Under the pieces are notes generated by a model. It was not told the origin of the DNA. It worked only from the letters and a program-made list of their open reading frames with translations, and searched no databases. From positions 15,309 through 79,308 of the forward strand of contig CAISIO010000006.1 in NCBI GenBank assembly GCA_903885445.1: 64,000 nt of DNA, in the 5' to 3' direction. How positions within the stretch are numbered: the first letter of the stretch is position 1; each line of letters opens with the position of its first letter. This document shows, piece by piece, positions 5,560 to 64,000 of the stretch. The DNA comes from Candidatus Staskawiczbacteria bacterium. Its GTDB lineage: Bacteria > Patescibacteriota > Minisyncoccia > Minisyncoccales > Staskawiczbacteraceae. Both the position numbers and the translations under genes were made by a program.

Positions 5560-6363
5560 TTACTTTTTTGCTATAGCAATTAAATGGTTGGCAAACGGCT
5601 GCAGCATTTTTGTATCGCTCAAAAATGGATCGGCCGGCTCAAGTATTCTCGCAAAAAAGCTGCCGATATTTTTATTAATCCTATACAGTATCAGTAGGGG
5701 CGCGAACATTATTCCGTGCGCCTGGACTTGTGAGAATCCGCATGAAAGCAGTTTGCTTTTTATTTTTCCCGGAGTTTCAAATTCACTGTGGAACCTCAAT
5801 GGTTTTTTAAAAAAATATTCATTTAATTTCCTCAAAAAGTTAAGCACGGGAAAACCGTTAAGAGCATACTTATTTATAAATGTTCCGAAAAATATTCCGC
5901 CCGGCTTTAGGACTCTTAAAATTTCTTCAAACCCCGACAGATTATCCTGCCCGTTTAAATAACGGAAAACTTCTATGGCAGAAACAAAATCAAAAAAGTT
6001 ATCTTCAAAAGGCAACTTAAGCGCGTTCCCCCTTACAATCGTGCCATTTGGTAGTTTGCCTTGGGCATACTTTAGCATATTTTCCGACGGCTCGACACCG
6101 GCTACATTAAAGCCGGCATCGAAAAGTTTTTTTAAATCGTCTCCCGTACCGCACCCTACATCCAAAATTTTGGCTCCTTTGGGCAGTTTGGCGATTTCCT
6201 TATAAAAAATCTTTTCAATTTGTTTTCTACCGTAAGTAAAATCTGAAGAAAAATAATCTTTTTCTTCATCTTTATGCTGGCCGGCAAACCAATCTGCGGT
6301 TTCGTCATGAATTGAAACGGCGGTATTCCTAGCCCAAATTTTTTTATCTTTATTTTCAGTCAT
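5560..6363 (-). CDS. Class I SAM-dependent methyltransferase
   Basis: 267 aa with the SAM-binding motif ILDVGCGTGDD and a downstream LKPGGIFF block. Confidence 0.85.
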   Translation of the reverse strand: MTENKDKKIWARNTAVSIHDETADWFAGQHKDEEKDYFSSDFTYGRKQIEKIFYKEIAKLPKGAKILDVGCGTGDDLKKLFDAGFNVAGVEPSENMLKYAQGKLPNGTIVRGNALKLPFEDNFFDFVSAIEVFRYLNGQDNLSGFEEILRVLKPGGIFFGTFINKYALNGFPVLNFLRKLNEYFFKKPLRFHSEFETPGKIKSKLLSCGFSQVQAHGIMFAPLLILYRINKNIGSFFARILEPADPFLSDTKMLQPFANHLIAIAKK

Positions 6364-7246
6364 TGGCTGTTACTTTATTTGTTAATTCTCCCATATTTAA
6401 GCTTTCCATGCCATATTTTAAGGACAATTCAGAAAAATAGCTTAATATTTCCCTTAAAAATTGTACATTTTTTTTAAACTCTCTGCCCGCTCCCAAATTA
6501 TACGGGTGCCACCAAAGATGGTAAACCAAATTATTCTTTGCGGCATATTTCATATCAGAAAGGATTCTGCGCAATTTTAACGGCTCAAAAAATGCCAAAA
6601 ATCTATCATACGGCCTAAAAAATCTGCTCGCAGGAATGTTTAAAATACCGGCACTCGGTTTTTTCAAATCAAACGCATTATGCCCGCTTATATTTATATA
6701 AGAATCAGCCAGCCGGCCCAGCCTGCAGAACAATGGTTCTTTCCCGCCTTTTCTGGCTTCGTACATCCAACTTTGCGGATTTCCGCGGAAAGCAGTAATG
6801 CCTTCTTTTTGGCAAATCTGCAAATACTCTTCATTTACCTGGTTATGCGGGAAAACAATGCTTTTTATTTTTATGCCGTTTCTCCGGGCGATACCAACGG
6901 CATTTTTTAGATCGGAGGCAAAATCATCTTTATCTTGACCATCAGCAAGGCAACAGTAATGCGTAAAAGTGTGCGTGCCGATTTCCTGGTTAGGACAAGA
7001 CAAGATTGATTTTATTGAAGTCATCGCATAGCGCAGCGGATCTTCCTTCCCGTTTCCAGAAAAAAGTAACCCAACAGTTGCCCAGGTTGCGTGGATTTTG
7101 TGTTTTTTAAATAATTCAAGCATTGTGGGAATTCCTTTTTGCACTTCCCAAAGCATCTTTTGTTGAAAAGAGGGCGACAAAGGTTTTTCCTCCATTCCCC
7201 AGGCGAGCTCAAAATCCAATGAAATTGTAAAAACGCCTCTTTCCAT
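6356..7246 (-). CDS. Polysaccharide deacetylase-like (CE4-type) protein
   Basis: 296 aa with an FTISLDFELAWG N-terminus and an HTFTH His cluster, typical of this fold. It is embedded in the glycan operon with an 8-nt overlap. Confidence 0.55.
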   Translation of the reverse strand: MERGVFTISLDFELAWGMEEKPLSPSFQQKMLWEVQKGIPTMLELFKKHKIHATWATVGLLFSGNGKEDPLRYAMTSIKSILSCPNQEIGTHTFTHYCCLADGQDKDDFASDLKNAVGIARRNGIKIKSIVFPHNQVNEEYLQICQKEGITAFRGNPQSWMYEARKGGKEPLFCRLGRLADSYINISGHNAFDLKKPSAGILNIPASRFFRPYDRFLAFFEPLKLRRILSDMKYAAKNNLVYHLWWHPYNLGAGREFKKNVQFLREILSYFSELSLKYGMESLNMGELTNKVTAND

Positions 7247-8238
7247 CAGCCAATTATTTTTTTAATTATATCTAACCAATCTTTCTTAAATTTGTCCATT
7301 GTGAAATTTCTTGCGAACTCCCGGCCCCTCCTTCCCATCTTTTCTCTCTGTTGCCCATTGTCCAGCAAATAGTTTACTTTTTCTTTCAGCATTTTAAAAT
7401 CAGCACAAACGACCTGTCCGCCTCCCTCCAGCAATTCTCTCATGCCTGCGATGCCCGAGCCGACAACCGGCGTTGATAGCAGCATTGCTTCATGTGCAGT
7501 CATACACCACCCCTCTTTCATTGTAGACATAGTAACCGCAACAGAAGAAGCTTTGAGCAAAATCAGATAATCTCTGTAGCCAGAATTAAAATTCAAAGCA
7601 GGGATTTTAACCATTGGCCTGCCGGATGTAACCAAATACACATCCAAGTCCTTAAGCGCCTCGTATGCTTGCACGACTCCTTTTGCTTTTTGACAATTCC
7701 CAATATAAACTATGGGTTTATCCTGCAAATTATGCTTCTTTTTAAAATCTGCAATCTCACTATCTGATATGTTAAAATCCTCCAAATTAAAACCGCAATA
7801 GATTTTATAGACGTTCTTATAGTCCTTCCTGATAAAAAAATCCTGCCAATAGCTGGAAATCGTTACGATAGCGTCAACTTTTTTTAATTGGCGGTAGAAA
7901 AAAAGTTTTTCTATCAGCGATAAGAACAGCCCCGGTACAAAAGAAAAGGCCCAAAAATCAATGTGGAAAATCAGAGCGATATTTTTCCCTGGAGTTCTTT
8001 TTTTAGAGAGTGCGACAGTTGAATAAAAATCCCTGATCCACAAGTCGCGCCGCTCATTCAACTTGAAAGAATATAAAAAAGATTCAAATATCTTAAGATA
8101 CCTTATTTTTGTTTTTTGGGCTTCCAGATCGACTAAATCTACATCAAATTCCGCAGACAGCGCGTCCTTAACCTGGTGGCTATACAGCACGCCACCATAC
8201 TTTTTTGAAGAAATTTGCGTTATTCCTATTTTCTTCAT
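7246..8238 (-). CDS. Glycosyltransferase family 4 (GT-B)
   Basis: The C-terminal EGWCMTAHEAMLLSTPVV block matches the E-x7-E region. I trimmed the start to ATG 8238 (MKKIGIT), which forms an ATGA overlap with the upstream stop at 8235. The track start at 8253 would overlap by 19 nt. Confidence 0.75.
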   Translation of the reverse strand: MKKIGITQISSKKYGGVLYSHQVKDALSAEFDVDLVDLEAQKTKIRYLKIFESFLYSFKLNERRDLWIRDFYSTVALSKKRTPGKNIALIFHIDFWAFSFVPGLFLSLIEKLFFYRQLKKVDAIVTISSYWQDFFIRKDYKNVYKIYCGFNLEDFNISDSEIADFKKKHNLQDKPIVYIGNCQKAKGVVQAYEALKDLDVYLVTSGRPMVKIPALNFNSGYRDYLILLKASSVAVTMSTMKEGWCMTAHEAMLLSTPVVGSGIAGMRELLEGGGQVVCADFKMLKEKVNYLLDNGQQREKMGRRGREFARNFTMDKFKKDWLDIIKKIIG

Positions 8239-9200
8239 ACTCTCTCCCGCCAATAATTTAAAGTATCTTCCAATGTCTTTTCAAACGGAATTTCCGGATT
8301 CCAGCCGGTCGCCTTGTTAAACTCCGAATAATCTCCTTTTAAAATTTGCACATCCGACGGCCTCATTCTTTCCGGGTCCTTTTCAACTTTTATATTTTTT
8401 ACAGTGCTAAGGCTCAAAAGAAACTCTAGAACCTTTTCTATTACCCATGTTTTACCCGAACAAATATTATATGGTTTTCCATATTCGCATTTTTCAGTTG
8501 CCAGCCAATACGCCCTTATCATATCCCTAACATCTGTATAATCCCTTTGCGCCTGAAGATTTCCTACTTTCACTATCGGTTCCTGTTTGCCTTTTTCAAT
8601 TTGGGCTATTTGTTTTGCAAAGGTTGATGTGACAAACTGCTCGCCTCTGCCCGGGCCTTCATGGTTAAACGCTCTGGTCAATACAACCTTAAGGCCATAA
8701 CTTTTATAGTATTGATAACCGAGCATTTCCTGCCCGATTTTTGAAACCGCGTACGGAGAAAGAGGCCTTAACGGATTTGTTTCTTTAATTGGAACTTCGT
8801 CTTCCGAAACCAGGCCATATTCCTCTGAAGATCCTGCAATTTGTATAATTGGATTTATGCCTAAATTTCTACAGGACTCAAAGATGTTCAACTCAGACAT
8901 TATATTATTGAAAATTGTATCTTCAGGCCCGTCCCAGGAAACCCTCACAAAGCTTTGCGCCGCTAAATGGAAAATCTTATCCGGTTTAACTTCCTGCAAG
9001 ACCCTTTCTACTGCTATCCTATTTGTCAGGTTGCACTCAAAAATTTTTATTTTATCTTTAACGCCCTCAATCCTTTTCATTTCGTCTCCCAAATGATGGG
9101 ACAAAATTGTTCCGTAAACCTCAGCCCCCGGCATCGATAAACAATATTCTGCCAAATACGAGCCTACGAAACCGCTGATTCCCGTAATTAATATTTTCAT
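8235..9200 (-). CDS. GDP-mannose 4,6-dehydratase / GDP-6-deoxy-sugar reductase-like extended SDR
   Basis: 321 aa with the ITGISGFVGSYL Rossmann motif and SPYAVSK (YxxxK). The overall layout matches the Gmd/Rmd family. Confidence 0.75.
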   Translation of the reverse strand: MKILITGISGFVGSYLAEYCLSMPGAEVYGTILSHHLGDEMKRIEGVKDKIKIFECNLTNRIAVERVLQEVKPDKIFHLAAQSFVRVSWDGPEDTIFNNIMSELNIFESCRNLGINPIIQIAGSSEEYGLVSEDEVPIKETNPLRPLSPYAVSKIGQEMLGYQYYKSYGLKVVLTRAFNHEGPGRGEQFVTSTFAKQIAQIEKGKQEPIVKVGNLQAQRDYTDVRDMIRAYWLATEKCEYGKPYNICSGKTWVIEKVLEFLLSLSTVKNIKVEKDPERMRPSDVQILKGDYSEFNKATGWNPEIPFEKTLEDTLNYWRERV

Positions 9201-21971: not shown

Positions 21972-22008
21972 ATATTAGACCCCTATCAACTAGGTGTCAA
22001 TAGGGGTC
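21972..22008 (-). promoter_or_regulatory. Sigma70-like promoter of the HTH gene with an overlapping 9-bp inverted repeat (candidate autoregulatory operator)
   Basis: On the minus strand the promoter reads TTGACA (21995-22000), N17, TAATAT (21972-21977). The perfect inverted repeat GACCCCTAT/ATAGGGGTC (21978-21986 / 22000-22008) spans the spacer and the -35. Confidence 0.45.
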
Positions 22009-22026
22009 AATAAGTATCATAAACAT

Positions 22027-22057
22027 AAAAAAAGTCCGCCACCCTCCAGTAGCGGAC
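22027..22057 (-). terminator. Intrinsic terminator of GC-rich cassette A
   Basis: The stem GTCCGC/GCGGAC (22034-22039 / 22052-22057) is followed on the minus strand by T7 (plus-strand A-run 22027-22033). It lies 29 nt downstream of the ORF stop. Confidence 0.65.
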
Positions 22058-22085
22058 GATCTTGGCGAAAACCAAGACCCCTCTC

Positions 22086-23117
22086 TTATTTTTCCTCGGT
22101 CGCGGCGGCCAACTCGCGCAAAGCCACGGCTCTGATGTGCTGAGTGCCAATTTCGGGCATGGCCAAAACATAGACCTTGGCCTCGTCAAGTTGGCCGGCA
22201 CGAATCGCCCGGCGCATGAGGACGAGCAAGGCCGTGGCCTTGCGCCCAGAATCTGTGTCGGCCTCAACGACGTTCCTGAGCATTGCCTCAGCTTGGGGCG
22301 TATTGACCGCATTGGCCTGCAGAGCCCGGACCAACTCGGCAATCGGCGCCCACGCGTCGCCGATTTTGAGCGCAGCCTGAAGGCAACTGGTCACCCAAGT
22401 ATCCCAGGCCGCATCGGTCCGATTGAGCCAGGTGAGAATCTCGATTATGTGAGCAGGCCCATTGCCCTGCGCCCAGAGCACTTCAAGCGTATGACCTCGC
22501 AAGGTCTCCTTTAGAGCCAGGAAGAGAGAACCCATCGACGAGACGATGCCGTCCATACTCTGGCCAGAAGCCCCGCGCACCAGATCCGCCTTCAGCAGGT
22601 AGTAAACCTCGAGGAAGCGGGAGATGGCCTCTCCAGCCCTATCACCCATCCTCGCCGCCGTTGTGGCTGAGCGGTGCTGCGCGTCGGCAGCAACGTCGAA
22701 ACGACCCCGTTCGTTGCACCACACGCCGATTTGGTAATCCAGCAGTGTTCTGCATCGTTGCTTCCGGGTACCTTCGGGCAACTCGGAAATCATCTGCCCT
22801 AACTGTTCAATCATCCGGGCAATTGCGGCATCCCTATCTAAGTCTGCCGGTAACCGGCGTTCCCCGTTGAGAACGCCAAGCATCACGAACGCTGCTACTT
22901 CCGGCAAGGCACTCACGCCGGCCAGAATCATCCTGCAAAGCTTCGCGTATGCTCCCGGATCTTTCTCGCCTCTCGCCACCCAGGCCTCAATTGCGCATAG
23001 CAGAACGTCAGTCTGCCAGCCGGTCCGTGGATTGCGCTGGTCGGGCGAAGTCATATCGTTCTTCGCCGTGTAGACCACCAGGGCCGCCAGTGTTGCCAAG
23101 TCGTGCATTACCACCAT
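22086..23117 (-). CDS. Hypothetical all-alpha protein (GC-rich cassette A)
   Basis: 343-aa ORF at about 60% GC in a sampled 60-nt stretch, with GC3-rich codons. GGGAG lies 8 nt upstream of the ATG. The Ala/Leu/Arg-rich helical sequence has no motif I recognise. Confidence 0.7.
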   Translation of the reverse strand: MVVMHDLATLAALVVYTAKNDMTSPDQRNPRTGWQTDVLLCAIEAWVARGEKDPGAYAKLCRMILAGVSALPEVAAFVMLGVLNGERRLPADLDRDAAIARMIEQLGQMISELPEGTRKQRCRTLLDYQIGVWCNERGRFDVAADAQHRSATTAARMGDRAGEAISRFLEVYYLLKADLVRGASGQSMDGIVSSMGSLFLALKETLRGHTLEVLWAQGNGPAHIIEILTWLNRTDAAWDTWVTSCLQAALKIGDAWAPIAELVRALQANAVNTPQAEAMLRNVVEADTDSGRKATALLVLMRRAIRAGQLDEAKVYVLAMPEIGTQHIRAVALRELAAATEEK

Positions 23118-23187
23118 GAGCCAAGCTCCCGTTTCTAGAGTTTCAGATTCTGAGTTACAGACACGTACGTAAAGAACACCGGCCTTT

Positions 23188-23216
23188 ATATTATAACCAT
23201 TTTAACAATCTGTCAA
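23188..23216 (-). promoter_or_regulatory. Sigma70-like promoter of cassette A
   Basis: On the minus strand it reads TTGACA (23211-23216), N17, TAATAT (23188-23193). The predicted leader of about 65 nt contains the shared TCTG/CTAG/AAACG motif. Confidence 0.5.
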
Positions 23217-40238: not shown

Positions 40239-40259
40239 ATCAGAAGAATTGAACATCGC

Positions 40260-40790
40260 CTAGGCGACTGGAACCGGGTTGAGAATCTCCCGGACATTAA
40301 GTTTGGCCGGCTTATTCGCGCGGTCGAACATCACCAGGACCTCACCATGATCGCAAATACCGCAAACATCTTCTATAATAACGCCCTTGCGGCCGCGGTA
40401 TTCCACCTCGTTCCCAAACATCAATGCCGCCTGCTCTGCCAAGGGATTCAACCGTACCCCAGACATCTCAGCTTTGCATATCGGGTAGATTCTGGTTGGC
40501 CAGCTTGTTTCGCCCCCTATGCTAGCCATTGTCCTAGTGGAACTGTACCTCACGCATCCGCCCATTTGGAAAAATCCGCACCCTGCGCATTTACTCGGAT
40601 TGGCCGAGGACTCAATTCGTCCAACAACTTCAATGCCCTCGGTTAAGCATCGGGCCAGCCGAACTTTTCCATCGTACTCGACAAGAGCTTCTTCGCCCTT
40701 GCCCGCTTCCCTTGGCAGGACAGTGATTACCACGCCTACCATATCTCCTGTTGCGAACTTTGTGCCGCGATCCAAAACTTCCGTGTTCAT
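40260..40790 (-). CDS. Hypothetical Cys-rich protein (GC-rich cassette B)
   Basis: 176-aa ORF at about 53% GC by eye. Two CxxC pairs (CAGC..., CGIC) are flanked by beta-rich SH3/KOW-like segments. I recognise no family. Confidence 0.65.
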   Translation of the reverse strand: MNTEVLDRGTKFATGDMVGVVITVLPREAGKGEEALVEYDGKVRLARCLTEGIEVVGRIESSANPSKCAGCGFFQMGGCVRYSSTRTMASIGGETSWPTRIYPICKAEMSGVRLNPLAEQAALMFGNEVEYRGRKGVIIEDVCGICDHGEVLVMFDRANKPAKLNVREILNPVPVA

Positions 40791-40814
40791 AATCTTCTTT
40801 CACGTTATCAATGT

Positions 40815-41056: not shown

Positions 41057-41965
41057 TCACCGACAATGGCGCTCAATGGCTTGCCGAATCTTGTCGAGCG
41101 CGCCATTTTGGATTTGGCGGACTCGTTCTGTTGTCAACCCAATCATTTTGGATACACCGAGTAGTGTTTCTTTTTTTCCCCGGCGTTCAAGATCAAATCG
41201 CGCGGTTAAGACAGTTATCTCTCTCGCATCGAGAAGGCCTGGCCGGCGGATTACCAGATTCAAAACATCCACCATATCGGCTGACTTCTCCTCTTTCAGC
41301 CACTCTCCAGTGGAATCCTTCTCTAAACGAGGATCGTGCGAAACCGGAAAGCGATGGCGATATGCGCCGGTCTTCGTGGCCAGCCTACAAAACGATTTCA
41401 GGATTGCTCTGCAGGCATATGTCGAAAACCTGTACCCCCTTGCGGCATCAAACTTCTCAACCGCCCTGAGCAAGGCCATGTTGCCTTCTGCGACCATCTC
41501 GGCAAACTCAGCGTTTAATATTCTTGATCTCTTAGCCATCGCCAATACAAGCCCGAGGTTTGCCTCAACAATTCTGGCCCTTAAGCTTTGTGCTCGCTCA
41601 TACCAAAACAACATGGCTTTTGCACGCAGGTGAGAAACGCGCCTGCTCTGGGCTTCAGCCAACAGACTAAGCCTATAGCGGGCGTAGTTGTAGCGGAAAA
41701 AAAGAATGGCCTCATCCCTCGGAGCGAGACGGACTGTCCTGCTTCCTCTTAGCTCATCGTATTCACATTCAACATCCCATGAAGAGCTCCAGCCCGACAC
41801 TTCGATTAGCCTAGCCCCAGCGCCAAAATAGTCTTCTTCGGCCGAAACCGCAGAAAAACCGGCGTTAGGAACGAAATCGACTTCTTCCGGAATCTGCCTA
41901 TACAGCACCGCCTGATTAGCATCCAGCCCAGAGACCTCGGCGATTCTTTCTGCTAGTTGCGTCAT
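41057..41965 (-). CDS. Sigma-70-family RNA polymerase sigma factor (group 3-like) on GC-rich cassette C
   Basis: Region 2 is EANLGLVLAMAKR...EGNMALLRAVEKFDAARGYRFSTYACRAI. Region 4 is ITVLTARFDL...LLGVSKMIGLTTERVRQIQNGALDKIR. I place the start at ATG 41965, with GGGAGG 6 nt upstream. The track start (GTG 41995) is less likely. Confidence 0.8.
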   Translation of the reverse strand: MTQLAERIAEVSGLDANQAVLYRQIPEEVDFVPNAGFSAVSAEEDYFGAGARLIEVSGWSSSWDVECEYDELRGSRTVRLAPRDEAILFFRYNYARYRLSLLAEAQSRRVSHLRAKAMLFWYERAQSLRARIVEANLGLVLAMAKRSRILNAEFAEMVAEGNMALLRAVEKFDAARGYRFSTYACRAILKSFCRLATKTGAYRHRFPVSHDPRLEKDSTGEWLKEEKSADMVDVLNLVIRRPGLLDAREITVLTARFDLERRGKKETLLGVSKMIGLTTERVRQIQNGALDKIRQAIERHCR

Positions 41966-41999
41966 CGTATGCCTCCCGTATTTATAGTCCAACACGTTT

Positions 42000-42077
42000 G
42001 CACCTCAAACACGAAAAACGCTTTTTCGATATTTCAAGGTGCTTAATTATTTATATGCCTTAAAATTTAATTGTCAA
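42000..42077 (-). promoter_or_regulatory. Promoter and 5'-terminal stem-loop of the cassette C sigma gene
   Basis: On the minus strand it reads TTGACA (42072-42077), N16, TATAAA (42050-42055). The -35 starts 2 nt after the htrA stop. The predicted 5' end folds as GCACCT...CGAAAAA-gcg-TTTTTCG...AGGTGC (42000-42042). Confidence 0.5.
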
Positions 42078-47597: not shown

Positions 47598-47663
47598 ATC
47601 TATGTCTGCGCTAGACAAAACGGACGGCGCGCATAGGTCGGACATTTACAAAGGAGTCTTTTT

Positions 47664-48116
47664 GTGAGCGAGTACCTTGCACTACGAAGAAACCCATCGA
47701 CCCTTGTGATTGTCTGTAGCCAACTCTCTTACGAGGGATGGGCAACACAAGAACTCGGGCTTGGGCCGCTGGACGTCAAGCTAATTAGTGTAGCGGGCGG
47801 ACCCGCTGCACTAGCACACGGCGACCTGGTAGCAACGGACTATACCAGGATGTGTGAGTGCGTCAGCTTTCTTCTTGCCGAATTCCCATCCATTCACACC
47901 GTGATAGGCATCAACCACGGCAACAACGGAAGAAAGGGCGGCTGCGGCTACTACGAAAAAGTACTCAAAATCGTGGGCGGAGAGAAAAGCGATCTACCAA
48001 AAATAGCTCGCCAGCTAGCTATTCTCGCCAAAGACAAAACGATTAGGACATTCTACGCCGGTCTCGTTGAGACTGGCGGGTCCAAAGTCGTCTTCGAAGA
48101 AGTCTTCGCGGCATAA
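47664..48116 (+). CDS. Hypothetical protein (GC-rich cassette D)
   Basis: 150-aa ORF with a GTG start and AGGAG (47652-47656) 7 nt upstream. It is GC-rich with GC3 codons. The spacing VIVCSQ...ISVAGG...HGNNGRKGGCG loosely recalls beta-carbonic-anhydrase ligand order, but this is not convincing. Confidence 0.65.
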   Translation: MSEYLALRRNPSTLVIVCSQLSYEGWATQELGLGPLDVKLISVAGGPAALAHGDLVATDYTRMCECVSFLLAEFPSIHTVIGINHGNNGRKGGCGYYEKVLKIVGGEKSDLPKIARQLAILAKDKTIRTFYAGLVETGGSKVVFEEVFAA

Positions 48117-48139
48117 ACGTGTCGCCTCGACGACGTAAG

Positions 48140-48169
48140 CCGCAGGCATCCGCTTGCGGTAATTTTTTT
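48140..48169 (+). terminator. Intrinsic terminator of cassette D
   Basis: The stem CCGCAGGC/GCTTGCGG (48140-48147 / 48152-48159, one G-U pair) is followed by taaTTTTTTT. The T-run overlaps the comEC stop codon (48168-48170). Confidence 0.65.
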
Positions 48170-49649
48170 ACACAAAATTTTGGTTGTATTTTTTGTTCAA
48201 GAACCTGGTGCCGAAAATAATTACAAAATATAAAACAACCAGCCAAATCCAATGGACATTCTGAAAAGTTTTCATCGCCCATGGCTGAGAAAAATAATCT
48301 ATAACTTTTACAAAATAAGTTAATAAAAACCAGCAAGGAATTGATAAAATCCAGCCTAAGGTGTTGGAAAAAATTCCGATGATTGAAACTAAAAACCCTA
48401 GAATCATTAGCCACTCGACAATAGGCAAGACCAAAAGATTGGTTATTGGGGCGACAAAAGAAATATTTCCAAAATTATAAACCATCACCGGCAAAGTAAA
48501 AATTTGTGCCGCAAAGGTTGTTGAAATAATTCCTATTAAGTTTTCCGCTTTTTCTTTTGTAAAGACTTTTATGATTCTTTTGATTAACGGCTCTAAATAT
48601 ATAAGCCCGATTACAGCCAAAAATGAAAGCTGAAAACCGACGTCATACAGCAAAAGCAAGGGATTTACCAAGAGCATCACGGCGCACGCCATAACAATTA
48701 CTCTCGGTCCCATGGTCTGCCGGCCAAATTTTTGCGCCAAAAGATAAAGCCCGCCCATTATCCCCGCCCTTACGCCAGACGGAGGCAATCCGGTTAAAAT
48801 AATATAGATAAAAATAAAAAACACTGCTATGTAAAACGCTTTTCCCCGGCTAAATCCCATTGCCAGCAACAAAGACATCACAATCGCGCTCAAGATAACA
48901 ACATGGGTGCCCGATACGGCAATAATGTGCCGAAGCCCGGTTATATTGAGTTTTGTTTTCAAATCATTTGTCATTGCTCCGTTGTCACCTAAGATAGTGC
49001 CCTCTAAAATCGAACTCTGAGGCGGTAAAAAACTATGCTCAATGCTTGCCCTAATTTTTTGCTTAAAAAATAATATCTTTTCGTAAATCCAAGAAAAAAC
49101 ACCATAATCATGTTTTTGAGAAACCAACTCTATTTTTGGAAAACCCATAACAGAATATATATGGTCTTTCATCAAATAATTCCTGTAAGAACCGGAAAAT
49201 GTGCCATCTTCGTTTTCACCAGGAGCTTCCAATTTTCCCGTAAGTTTTATTTTGTCTAAATATTTGTATTCCGGATATTTATTTATCGTAGTCAAAACCG
49301 TACTTTCTCCAACTCTAACTTTTATCTTTTGGTAGGCGTCTCTCACGTCGGGCTCGCTGGAAATTATCCCGGTCATAACAAATTGGCCCTTTCCGTTATA
49401 TTTGCTCAACCTGTCATTGGCTATATTAAACTTTGTAATTTGCGATCTTAAAATCCCAAAAATTAAAAATAAAACACAAAAGCCAAAAACAAAGCTAATC
49501 TTCTTGAAAAAAACCGAGGCGAAAATAAGCAGTATTCCAAAAATTAAAATCCCCCAAACAAAAATTTGAGGAATTTTGATTACCGACTCCAAAAATACTC
49601 CCGCGATAAATAATATACAAAGAAAAAATAATATCTTAGACGGACTCAT
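48168..49649 (-). CDS. comEC: ComEC/Rec2-family competence channel protein (no MBL domain)
   Basis: 493 aa with an N-terminal OB/DUF4131-like segment and a polytopic competence domain (GLRHIIAVSGTHVVIL). It ends without the C-terminal metallo-beta-lactamase domain found in long ComEC proteins. Confidence 0.75.
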   Translation of the reverse strand: MSPSKILFFLCILFIAGVFLESVIKIPQIFVWGILIFGILLIFASVFFKKISFVFGFCVLFLIFGILRSQITKFNIANDRLSKYNGKGQFVMTGIISSEPDVRDAYQKIKVRVGESTVLTTINKYPEYKYLDKIKLTGKLEAPGENEDGTFSGSYRNYLMKDHIYSVMGFPKIELVSQKHDYGVFSWIYEKILFFKQKIRASIEHSFLPPQSSILEGTILGDNGAMTNDLKTKLNITGLRHIIAVSGTHVVILSAIVMSLLLAMGFSRGKAFYIAVFFIFIYIILTGLPPSGVRAGIMGGLYLLAQKFGRQTMGPRVIVMACAVMLLVNPLLLLYDVGFQLSFLAVIGLIYLEPLIKRIIKVFTKEKAENLIGIISTTFAAQIFTLPVMVYNFGNISFVAPITNLLVLPIVEWLMILGFLVSIIGIFSNTLGWILSIPCWFLLTYFVKVIDYFSQPWAMKTFQNVHWIWLVVLYFVIIFGTRFLNKKYNQNFV

Positions 49650-56091: not shown

Positions 56092-56577
56092 ATGAAACTC
56101 GTAGCGATACCGATTAAAATACGGTTCAACGGAGCAACTCCTTTATCCGAGCTATATGCGCAGCTCGCAGAGCACATGGTCTCTGCGCCGTTGTACAGCT
56201 TCTTTGAGAATATGGACAATGAGCGCCTGCACTTCTGCGATACTATTGAAGAAAAGGAGATTATAGTCGTACGATTTGGAGCGTCAATGAACGAAGTGGA
56301 GGCCTTTGCCACCCTAGAAGGAACACGCTACAAAGAGAACACCCTCGTAAGCGCCAATTTAAGAGAGGCGTTAACGTGTGCGGCAGATGAAAAGTATTGG
56401 ACGCAGGGCACAAAAGGCAGAGTCGTAGTTCTGAGGGCCAAACGCGAACCGCCGTTGTCGAAAGTGGACTTCTTGTCATTGTACAAGGGTCCCGGAGAAA
56501 AAAGGGTCATAAAGCCTTACGCCGTGAAAATATTCCCGGCAAGTACTTGGTTCTTGGCAAAAGAAAAGGAATCCTAA
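56092..56577 (+). CDS. Hypothetical protein (intermediate-GC cassette E)
   Basis: 161-aa ORF on the minority strand at about 47% GC by eye. AAAGG lies 6 nt upstream of the ATG. A hairpin, GGAATCCT/AGGATTCC (56568-56599), spans the stop, and a T7 run lies at 56637-56643. Confidence 0.6.
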   Translation: MKLVAIPIKIRFNGATPLSELYAQLAEHMVSAPLYSFFENMDNERLHFCDTIEEKEIIVVRFGASMNEVEAFATLEGTRYKENTLVSANLREALTCAADEKYWTQGTKGRVVVLRAKREPPLSKVDFLSLYKGPGEKRVIKPYAVKIFPASTWFLAKEKES

Positions 56578-59371: not shown

Positions 59372-59725
59372 TTACATAACTAGCTCCATATGGCTTAACA
59401 TATTAACTATGCCAAAAATGGCAGAAAACCATAATAATAAAATAGCCAGTCCGATAATTAATATTTTTTTCTTAAATTTTATACTCATTATTAATAGACC
59501 AAGAATACCAAACCATTCAATTCCCATCGCTAAAAGTAGGTAGCCAATATGATCAGTAAAAAATTGTTGACCTACAACATAATAAATCGGCGACTTAATA
59601 TTTGTTTCCGAAAAATTATTTAAAAAAGATAAAATGGACAGTGGCGTAAAATAAAATAAAATTTCGGGGACGACGAACATAGCGACGAAAACCCACAACC
59701 AAATTTTTTGTACTTTTGACATCAT
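59372..59725 (-). CDS. Small hydrophobic membrane protein
   Basis: 117 aa with 3-4 predicted TM helices. I recognise no family, and it is not SMR-like. Confidence 0.55.
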   Translation of the reverse strand: MMSKVQKIWLWVFVAMFVVPEILFYFTPLSILSFLNNFSETNIKSPIYYVVGQQFFTDHIGYLLLAMGIEWFGILGLLIMSIKFKKKILIIGLAILLLWFSAIFGIVNMLSHMELVM

Positions 59726-59787
59726 GTTTTACTATTTTAATTTATATTTATTAATTATACCAACTCTGAAAGATTTTTTCTACAAAC

Positions 59788-60065
59788 AAAAAAAGACCCC
59801 ACTTCTGCAGGTTAGGTTTGCTACGCGGAGGAGTGCGTAGCGAGAGGAAAAAACCAATGCGAGCAGATGTGGGGACATATTTAGAGAGGACACGGCCAGG
59901 AGTTTGGGGCGAAAGGACGCTCATTCATCGAACGAAGCGAACAATCACACCGAAGGCACCGGAACTATCAGAGTGGAGGGGTTTTGAAGGTCTGTTGGCC
60001 TCCACTATTCTGTTACGTGCCCCTATCCTGGGCGTGTCCTCATGGGACGAATGAACTGTCTATAC
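59788..60065 (-). ncRNA. Candidate structured non-coding RNA of unknown class (about 270 nt)
   Basis: GC-rich region with no ORF. Nested long-range helices: 59886-59900/60027-60041 (14 of 15 bp), 59906-59910/60019-60023, and hairpin 59973-59979/59999-60005. The 3' stem 59797-59808/59863-59874 (11 of 12 bp), with inner hairpin 59820-59826/59835-59841, is followed by T7 on the minus strand. Confidence 0.45.
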
Positions 60066-60068
60066 CTA

Positions 60069-60097
60069 TTTTTAACAAAAGCCAGACCGCACGTCAA
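60069..60097 (-). promoter_or_regulatory. Candidate promoter of the structured RNA
   Basis: On the minus strand it reads TTGACG (60092-60097), N17, TAAAAA(T) (60069-60074). It lies between the cassette F terminator and the first helix. Confidence 0.35.
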
Positions 60098-60116
60098 TGG
60101 GCCGACTTGGTAAAAC

Positions 60117-60143
60117 AAAAAAAAAGCAAACCCGAAGGCTTGC
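60117..60143 (-). terminator. Intrinsic terminator of cassette F ORF
   Basis: On the minus strand GCAAGCC-uucg-GGTTTGC (60126-60143) is followed by T9 (plus-strand A-run 60117-60125). It lies 28 nt after the stop. Confidence 0.7.
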
Positions 60144-60170
60144 ACGTTGCGTCTCACAAATATTGGCGCC

Positions 60171-60857
60171 CTACCCGATAGGAATGAATCCTCTCTCGCG
60201 GAGGGTTTGTAAAAGTTCGATGTTTCCGTCAACTTCGCCCAATGCCGCTGTCGGCTCACCGTCGTAGTCGAGCAGCACCTCCCAGGCAAGCGGGTCTGCC
60301 ACTGGCAACCACAGGCCTGTACCGGTATTGGCACACCACCACTTCCTCCCGCAACTGCAGGCGAAACACCTCTTGGGGAACTTCCCACCGGTGGCTTCTT
60401 GCCAATCAAATACCTGGCCCTCTTGTGTCGCCATCAGTTGGATGCATAAGCAATGACCGGCGTAGAGCTTGCGGGGTCCCGTGTATCTCTGCGCTTCAAC
60501 CAACGCCTGACCGGTCCGAAGGAAAAACTCGATCTGCGTGGCGACGAATGCCTCCATCGCCTCGTTGACGGCGGTGTTGGCAGTGAAGAGGGCTGCGCCA
60601 TCAGCGCCGACCCAGCAGAATTTGTCGCCCTCTTTGGGCCGTGAAACAACCCATTGACTCGTTTCATTGAGAACAAGCTCCTCGGCGACCCAGGGATCAT
60701 TGAATTCGATCCCGTGCTCGATGTAGTCCTTGCCGGTTATGCGCCCCCTAGCGACTCTTTCTCCTTCCGCCCCATCGATTGACTCAATCGTGAAATGGAT
60801 GCAATGGCATCCGGGGACCAATTCGTACTCTGGGCCTTTCCACTCGAATAGCAACAT
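60171..60857 (-). CDS. Hypothetical Cys/Trp-rich protein (GC-rich cassette F)
   Basis: 228-aa ORF that is GC-rich with GC3 codons. GAGGAG (60864-60869) lies 6 nt upstream of the ATG. The Cys clusters GCHCIH, GHCLC and CFACSCGRKWWC suggest metal binding. I recognise no family. Confidence 0.7.
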   Translation of the reverse strand: MLLFEWKGPEYELVPGCHCIHFTIESIDGAEGERVARGRITGKDYIEHGIEFNDPWVAEELVLNETSQWVVSRPKEGDKFCWVGADGAALFTANTAVNEAMEAFVATQIEFFLRTGQALVEAQRYTGPRKLYAGHCLCIQLMATQEGQVFDWQEATGGKFPKRCFACSCGRKWWCANTGTGLWLPVADPLAWEVLLDYDGEPTAALGEVDGNIELLQTLRERGFIPIG

Positions 60858-60908
60858 GACCGTCTCCTCGTGTTTTTTTCTCGTTTCACTGGCTAGCGAC
60901 GATAATAT

Positions 60909-63658: not shown

Positions 63659-63721
63659 TTTTATTACTCACTGTATCACACTTTTTTCCTTGTTGCAATA
63701 GGGCGAAAAAGCGGTTTAAAT

Positions 63722-63757
63722 AAAAAAAGACGGCCTGGCGTTCGCGGACGCCAGGCC
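63722..63757 (-). terminator. Intrinsic terminator of GC-rich cassette G
   Basis: The perfect 9-bp stem GGCCTGGCG/CGCCAGGCC (63732-63740 / 63749-63757) is followed on the minus strand, after GTC, by T7 (plus-strand A-run 63722-63728). Confidence 0.75.
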
Positions 63758-63780
63758 AAAGGATGATATAATAACGTCTA

Positions 63781-64000
63781 CTAGTGACGCTTAAAGCTAC
63801 GGAGCTTCATGTGCCCAGGCGGGGCCTTGGGCCCTGGCTTTCTACGGTTGACCTGATCGGCCAATCCCCGATCGCGGACTACTTGCAAGAACGCGCCCTT
63901 GAATTGGTCGAACGGAAGTTCAACCAATTCTTTGTGTCCCATCACAAGGTCTTTGTAGACCGGCTCCAGCCGCTGGTCTAGGGCGTCGGGCCTTACATGC
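63781..64000 (-). CDS. Hypothetical protein, C-terminal fragment (GC-rich cassette G; gene continues beyond window end)
   Basis: Not in the ORF track. My hand translation of the minus strand gives 72 stop-free codons: ...HVRPDALDQRLEPVYKDLVMGHKELVELPFDQFKGAFLQVVRDRGLADQVNRRKPGPKAPPGHMKLRSFKRH, ending at TAG (63781-63783). The terminator lies 24 nt downstream. Confidence 0.55.
   Translation of the reverse strand, partial: HVRPDALDQRLEPVYKDLVMGHKELVELPFDQFKGAFLQVVRDRGLADQVNRRKPGPKAPPGHMKLRSFKRH

Follow-up and report, generated by a model that had tools for sequence, protein, structure and literature searches.

Trans-acting small RNAs (sRNAs) with C-rich or anti-Shine-Dalgarno (anti-SD) loops are known from Firmicutes, where RsaE/RoxS and the hairpins of RNAIII are examples. 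The subject of this study is a candidate RNA of roughly 270 nt on the minus strand of a genome of Candidatus Staskawiczbacteria (Patescibacteria / Candidate Phyla Radiation, ~40% GC), lying in a 64-kb stretch of DNA that was analysed as a whole and is called the window below. Like RsaE/RoxS and RNAIII, it is predicted to have its own promoter and intrinsic terminator as well as pyrimidine-rich hairpin loops (here ACUCCUCC and UUUCCUCUC), which could pair with ribosome-binding sites of the GGAGG type, but it shows no sequence or Rfam similarity to them, has a greater size and a more elaborate fold than most of these sRNAs, and is an orphan with no statistically supported target. With raiA, HEARO, OLE, ROOL and GOLLD it shares the character of a GC-rich, structured RNA free of open reading frames (ORFs) that occurs in an AT-rich genome and at times in association with mobile DNA; however, no model matches it at E<=10, and whereas those classes rest on covariation, the candidate is a single sequence. 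RNase P RNA, transfer-messenger RNA (tmRNA), the large signal recognition particle (SRP) RNA and 6S RNA are comparable in size (~270 nt), in having their own promoter and terminator and in a GC content above that of the genome, but neither Rfam nor ARAGORN finds a match to the candidate, and its absence from the syntenic position in ~50 related genomes excludes a housekeeping gene conserved at this locus. Finally, the order of promoter, structured domain, intrinsic terminator and gene is that of terminator-type riboswitch leaders; unlike in such leaders, the downstream gene, which encodes a membrane protein of 117 aa (m117), is served by a conserved promoter of its own, and its orthologues occur without the candidate RNA.

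An earlier note on this DNA had described a free-standing, highly structured RNA, and much of that description holds: an ORF-poor structured unit with a credible promoter and terminator is present, while the riboswitch that the note offered as an alternative fails. The reading we favour, and to which we give an even chance of being right, is that of a structured sRNA encoded on the minus strand, an orphan that was acquired horizontally and is transcribed independently; that it is transcribed and functional is what we infer from its sequence. Under this reading, a TTGACG-N17-TGnTAAAAA promoter would start transcription just past the terminator of the upstream 228-aa gene (c228), the transcript would fold into a static 5' domain made of a 15-bp closing helix, a multi-branch core and a 19-nt apical loop, and the long stem of a 3' domain followed by U7 would end transcription ahead of the separate promoter of m117. 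The predicted parts of the RNA are the following.

~60062 to ~59790, minus strand: candidate RNA, the putative transcription unit of roughly 270 nt
60042-60062, minus strand: predicted single-stranded 5' tail, from promoter spacing, mostly unpaired in the partition function
59886-60041, minus strand: 5' domain of 156 nt, closed by the 15-bp helix P1 and containing hairpins P3 and P4
60041-60027 / 59900-59886, minus strand: P1, 14 of 15 positions paired, with one C.C mismatch
60006-59999 / 59979-59972, minus strand: hairpin P3, with the 19-nt loop CCAACAGACCUUCAAAACC at 59998-59980
59939-59918, minus strand: hairpin P4, with the triloop GAU
59797-59874, minus strand: 3' domain, with the long-range stem 59874-59863 / 59808-59797
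59855-59851 / 59819-59815, minus strand: inner helix of the 3' domain, GGUUU/AAACC
59841-59835 / 59826-59820, minus strand: perfect 7-bp hairpin of the 3' domain, with the exposed loop ACUCCUCC at 59834-59827
59850-59842, minus strand: pyrimidine-rich loop UUUCCUCUC, predicted unpaired in the partition function

Read on the minus strand, P1, the hairpin with the 19-nt loop, the 3' domain with its 7-bp hairpin and the T7 behind it were all recovered at the positions first given for them, and P1 was found independently by a repeat search as an inverted repeat (I1, 16 nt at 94%). A further helix GGGGC/GCCCC (60023-60019 / 59910-59906), proposed as an extension of P1, is present as complementarity but is not part of the minimum free energy (MFE) structure, in which GGGGCAC pairs with GGUGCCUU instead, and forcing it costs just 0.4 kcal/mol (-101.5 versus -101.9). 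With the two pairings so near in energy the central junction is ambiguous, while P1, P3, P4 and the 3' domain are robust. The MFE structure of the 3' domain makes up 33% of its ensemble. AAAACC (59985-59980) and GGUUUU (59855-59850) might make contact with each other as loops.

The stability of the fold was assessed as the z-score of RNAfold energies against 200 dinucleotide shuffles. For the 291-nt candidate region, z is -6.0 when the minus strand is folded and -4.8 for the plus strand; the 5' domain alone reaches -5.62 and the 3' domain alone -6.35, with no shuffle as good (0/200) in either case. In a scan of the minus strand by 456 windows of 280 nt over the 64 kb, for which the background has a mean z of -0.57 and a standard deviation of 1.33, the window of the candidate has z -6.8 and ranks 2nd, in agreement with the claim of a highly structured RNA of ~270 nt. 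GC-richness does not explain this, since coding windows within the GC-rich genes that occur in the same 64 kb reach no more than -2.5 to +0.6. Folding as extreme as this is rare in the 64 kb, yet shared by another locus, which is taken up below.

The signals that would delimit the transcript, and the two genes between which it stands, are as follows.

60069-60097, minus strand: promoter-like element, -35 TTGACG (60097-60092), 17-nt spacer, TGn-TAAAAA (60074-60069)
59788-59796, minus strand: UC plus U7 tract (U7 at 59794-59788) of the intrinsic terminator, directly after the 3' stem
60171-60857, minus strand: c228, GC-rich gene of 228 aa, 57% GC
60117-60143, minus strand: intrinsic terminator of c228, outside the RNA, with a 7-bp stem and UUCG loop at 60143-60126, and T9
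59372-59725, minus strand: m117, membrane-protein gene of 117 aa
59754-59782, minus strand: own promoter of m117, outside the RNA, TAGAAA-N17-TGgTATAAT, between the T-run and the ATG

The promoter-like element can be read alternatively with an 18-nt spacer and AAAAAT, and from the position of the -10 element transcription would start at about 60062-60060. A general promoter scan of the window is noisy, with 57 found against 36.5 expected, while the strict pattern TTGAC[AG]-N16-18-TA[ACT]AN[AT] occurs 5 times on both strands (128 kb), and for 3 of the 4 other sites a start codon follows at a distance of 52-61 nt, that of c228, of nrdD and of a sigma-factor cassette. Base composition leads to an estimate of ~2.7 chance occurrences per 128 kb, and the intergenic share of the DNA is roughly 6%, where the chance count is far smaller. 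With so few chance matches to be expected in intergenic DNA, the element upstream of the candidate, present just where the earlier note had placed it, is probably a real promoter, and its credibility is raised by the rarity of the strict pattern and its place ahead of genes. At the other end, the stem is followed by U7 on the minus strand and by no T-run on the plus strand, which fixes the direction of the terminator. What is more, c228 ends with a strong terminator of its own, so the candidate would not be a read-through 3'-untranslated region of that gene. By consensus matches, the unit thus has the sigma-70-type promoter and the intrinsic terminator on the same strand that mark a stand-alone sRNA gene.

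The candidate belongs to none of the known RNA classes that were tried. Rfam 15 (4227 models at the gathering threshold) gave 0 matches over the whole window; at E<=10 the segment 59600-60300 gave 3 matches at chance level (17-25 bits against gathering thresholds of 70-100), and the candidate RNA alone gave 0. ARAGORN reported 0 tRNA or tmRNA genes in the window. Together, the two programs rule out RNase P RNA, tmRNA, SRP RNA, 6S RNA, riboswitches, ribozymes, HEARO, raiA and Y RNA-like RNAs, in line with the failure of the earlier note to match the sequence to a class. Nor does the minus strand look coding: no ORF spans the candidate, the first ATG giving 6 codons and a 57-codon frame running through the terminator, and its GC content by codon phase is flat (0.55/0.53/0.49), while in six GC-rich cassette genes the second position lies below the first and the third by 0.12-0.2. 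Six-frame fragments matched no Pfam family, and a blastx comparison with all ORFs of 854 kb of related loci, which would expose a pseudogene, returned nothing.

The searches run here found no relative of the candidate, and in this sense it is an orphan. Neither blastn nor nhmmer found it in 50 syntenic Staskawiczbacteria loci, and blastn found nothing in phage and plasmid collections. When five parts of the RNA were looked for in viral contigs as exact 18-22-mers, the outcome was 0 or chance matches only; the 20-mer and 18-mer matches are isolated, and the context that was read, for a 20-mer present in three contigs, is GC-rich phage coding DNA without flanking similarity. One exact 18-mer had 31 matches in metagenome contigs, none extending past 18-23 nt. 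Over the 854 kb, a covariance model built from the one sequence of the 5' domain recovered only itself, and translated searches of the plus-strand frame recovered only the ORF itself.

The locus was compared with 50 loci obtained by a HisRS search (54-91% identity), nearly all from Staskawiczbacteria, with one outlier (L055, Bryobacteraceae, 41%); the genomes of relatives were viewed within +/-10 kb of HisRS. On the minus strand, the genes for S26 signal peptidase, HisRS, ribosomal protein S21 (a label read from the sequence by eye, with no database match behind it), YqeY and c228 precede the candidate, and m117, an 898-aa LCAT-like lipase gene and, further on, YbeY, FtsA and FtsZ follow it. 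The backbone S26-HisRS-S21-YqeY ... YbeY-FtsA is kept in ~50 Staskawiczbacteria loci, with the interval between YqeY and YbeY as a variable hotspot whose content differs between relatives and whose length varies from ~70 bp to ~7 kb. In one relative (L025) the exact place of c228 and the RNA is taken by a different GC-rich gene, of 330 aa, which has a TTGACA promoter and a terminator of its own. Given this replacement and the GC-richness of both, c228 and the candidate RNA (52% GC) are placed in an acquired island at a cassette hotspot, and the candidate unit looks like one more promoter-to-terminator cassette, but without an ORF.

Cassettes of this kind occur at several places. Lone GC-rich genes (51-60% GC against ~38%), mostly ORFans, stand between conserved housekeeping genes at the positions given here, and every one of them has a TTGACA-type promoter and an intrinsic terminator to itself.

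21976-23194, window: GC-rich single-gene cassette
40240-40808, window: GC-rich single-gene cassette
41057-42014, window: GC-rich single-gene cassette
47646-48179, window: GC-rich single-gene cassette
60112-60905, window: GC-rich single-gene cassette
63700-64000, window: GC-rich single-gene cassette
7290-8440, L025: GC-rich single-gene cassette

Immediately upstream of the gene for S26 signal peptidase there is a second hotspot, where many Staskawiczbacteria have GC-rich stretches of 300-450 nt (L007 8737-9200, L013 8793-9205, L033 8748-9178, L016 4764-5139 and others; 63700-64000 in the window). Their ORFs are small (~90-100 aa), rich in R and K, and dissimilar to one another and to the window. 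A second non-coding RNA had been suspected at this place; Rfam gave no match upstream of the S26 gene, and the suspicion was dropped in favour of the small GC-rich ORFs. As a separate observation, a near-consensus promoter TTGACG-N16-TATAAT (11/12) occurs at 56260-56287 on the minus strand, antisense within a plus-strand 161-aa ORF (56092-56577) and 293 nt upstream of a 222-aa gene, so that either the 161-aa ORF is a false call or the leader of the 222-aa gene is long.

The candidate RNA is independent of both neighbouring genes. Among 5.8 billion proteins c228 has two homologues only (46% and 39% identity), and the five contigs that carry them (L001-L005) are unrelated, Patescibacteria-like contexts in which no similar RNA lies downstream of the gene; no relatives of c228 were found in viral contigs. 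The co-occurrence of the RNA with the 228-aa gene, which the earlier note had asked about, is thus not borne out, and a functional link between the two was rejected, as the homologues sit elsewhere without the RNA. The lack of obligate co-occurrence also led us to reject an RNA partner of the neighbouring protein, such as a type III antitoxin, a guide or omega RNA, or a retron RNA; in addition, the candidate has no tandem or direct repeats of the ToxI kind, and no reverse transcriptase, TnpB or IscB domain was found among the neighbours scanned. Structure prediction for c228 itself gave a poor model (pLDDT, the predicted local confidence score, 53), to which nothing in the PDB matched at E<0.5. 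On the contig of one c228 homologue (P0002, on L001), three related GC-rich elements of 50-70 nt with terminator-like hairpin ends flank successive genes (5770-5840, 6760-6835 and 7520-7575) and look like a dispersed repeat family.

Several observations weigh against the favoured reading, and the rival explanations draw on some of them. The layout of promoter, structured domain and terminator, followed on the same strand by the m117 ATG 62 nt past the T-run, would fit a terminator-type riboswitch or cis leader controlling m117, and inspection, partly backed by folding, gives the GGGG run at 60023-60020 three possible C-rich partners, one of which is the 5' strand of the terminator, so that an antiterminator is conceivable. 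We nevertheless regard a leader as very improbable and rejected the riboswitch, in view of the TGnTATAAT promoter between the T-run and the ATG and of the loci of m117 orthologues. The protein has five homologues besides itself; from their contigs and two genome loci, six orthologous contexts were obtained (L024, L025 and L091-L094). In 6 of 6 a promoter block (...tcttt.cagagttg(g)tataattaataaatat) stands directly upstream of the orthologue and in 0 of 6 is the candidate RNA present, which also disposes of a co-occurrence with the small membrane protein; the upstream neighbours are different and unrelated (a STAS-like gene, a 137-aa membrane protein, Maf, another GC-rich cassette). Homology of these loci to the window begins at ~59764-59789, and in the closest relative (L091, 85% nucleotide identity) at ~59764, just past the T-run of the candidate. 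Moreover, P1, as a 15-bp GC-rich helix, is far more static than the usual riboswitch P1, and Rfam shows no riboswitch match at E<=10. The composition of the transcript speaks against the sRNA itself: it would be pyrimidine-rich (C 0.30 against G 0.22), which is unusual for structured RNAs, and an excess of C over G is the opposite of the skew on the sense strand of the cassette genes. The claim that the region holds no plausible ORF stands for the minus strand and for the region as ORF-poor, but less firmly for the plus strand, where the public record has the following feature.

59857-60054, plus strand: 65-aa ORF P0004, recorded as a coding sequence (hypothetical protein), with AGAGGA 8 nt before its ATG

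On this ground, the region might be a gene for a small protein (65-78 aa, 59857/59818-60054) on the plus strand, an oppositely oriented GC-rich cassette in which the RNA fold is incidental. A stop-free frame of 93 codons covers the region, the AGAGGA ahead of the ATG is an SD-like motif in the style of the ribosome-binding sites of the cassettes, the plus strand has the G-over-C skew of their sense strands, and the codon-usage score of the frame, 0.06 bits/codon, is intermediate between those of cassette windows read in frame (0.20 +/- 0.10) and off frame (-0.20 +/- 0.10). However, this score is inflated by the choice of an open frame, a stop-free frame of such length arises in 9% of shuffles, and GC at the three codon positions is flat (0.55/0.55/0.51). 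The plus strand has neither promoter nor terminator, while the plus-strand cassette c150 has its own terminator, and the 5' end of the 65-aa ORF overlaps the minus-strand terminator. Its sole match among 5.8 billion and 1.84 billion proteins is itself, and single-sequence AlphaFold prediction gives a pLDDT of 59.5 and a predicted template-modelling score (pTM) of 0.20. We judge the protein gene unlikely, and P0004 probably a spurious call over a structured RNA.

A decayed, non-functional shell of a former GC-rich cassette, of which the promoter, some of the body and the terminator would survive and which would owe its stable fold to GC-rich foreign DNA and a terminator, is a doubtful explanation, though one to be reckoned with. 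The candidate is a singleton without a found relative in a hotspot where cassettes come and go; with no homologue at hand, neither covariation nor selection on the structure is seen, which counts against a functional RNA. The -10 hexamer, likewise, is imperfect, lacking the canonical final T at 17-nt spacing. Cassette 3' ends, furthermore, can be highly structured, as at 63715-64000 (z -4.6) and above all at 21981-22260 on the minus strand, the top-ranked window of the scan (z -7.3 with 20 shuffles, -6.2 with 200). The latter window, at the 3' end of the GC-rich cassette of 343 aa, comprises an imperfect hairpin of ~50 bp within coding sequence, two hairpins of terminators, and an operator-like 10-bp palindrome over the promoter of a downstream 82-aa helix-turn-helix gene; extreme folding thus also arises at cassette ends with terminators and a palindrome. 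Against a remnant stand the 156-nt 5' domain, which without the terminator still has z -5.6 where GC-rich cassette coding DNA reaches only -2.5 to +0.6, the lack of residual codon periodicity and of protein-level similarity to the ORFs of the loci or to Pfam, and the promoter and terminator, both intact and bracketing the structure exactly. A mobile element acting at the DNA level, such as a site of recombination or an origin of transfer or of single-strand replication, working as folded single-stranded or duplex DNA, would agree with the good folding of both strands (z -6.0 and -4.8) and with the place in an acquired island at a cassette hotspot, and GTTAGGT matches the integron core GTTRRRY, but at chance level by our own estimate. 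Such an element is distinctly improbable: no integrase, Rep, relaxase or transposase is nearby, no flanking direct or inverted repeats delimit it, no copy stands beside the other cassettes of the window, and the homologues of c228 move without it.

As to what the structured sRNA of the favoured reading would do, its exposed pyrimidine-rich loops, of the CCUCC type, give a hint, taken here with low confidence. ACUCCUCC, held on a 7-bp GC stem, and UUUCCUCUC resemble an anti-SD sequence and could pair with the SD sequences of cassette mRNAs, so that the RNA might act in trans by base pairing through loops that mimic the anti-SD. To this specific mechanism we assign well under half of the chance given to the sRNA as a whole. 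With an SD-like motif defined as GGAG, GAGG or AGGA at -20 to -4, 5 of the 56 genes of the window have one, and 4 of these 5 are GC-rich cassette genes (c343 with GGGAG, the sigma cassette with GAGG, c150 with GGAG and c228 with GAGGAG).

22086-23117, 41057-41995, 47664-48116 (plus strand) and 60171-60857: SD-bearing cassette genes
GAGGAGACGG: leader sequence of c228

It seems that the foreign cassettes arrive with ribosome-binding sites of their own in a host that is largely SD-less. The still more specific proposal, that the unit is a self-contained mobile RNA cassette of the GC-rich promoter-plus-terminator pool that inserts between Patescibacteria housekeeping genes, and that it acts as an anti-SD decoy or repressor and tunes SD-bearing cassette genes such as c228 in this SD-less host, strikes us as improbable. 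The anti-SD complementarity of the loops is ~6 nt and generic. In local duplex target prediction c228 comes third and the top place goes to an epimerase gene (-29 kcal/mol), while unrestricted duplexfold gives giant duplexes that are meaningless. The best duplex with the ribosome-binding site of c228, at -22.5 kcal/mol, has P=0.035 against shuffles, which is unconvincing after multiple looks, and the segment that pairs there is the 3' strand of P1, which is buried in the fold.

The element is thus a candidate for an unclassified bacterial small-RNA gene, predicted from one sequence and strongly supported by its folding energy and its signals. Organisms of the Candidate Phyla Radiation have few recognisable regulators, and the literature searched describes no regulatory RNAs from them. 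If verified, a 270-nt structured RNA with its own promoter in an acquired island would be an early example in the Candidate Phyla Radiation, and it would offer a starting point for understanding how ultra-small bacteria handle foreign genes.

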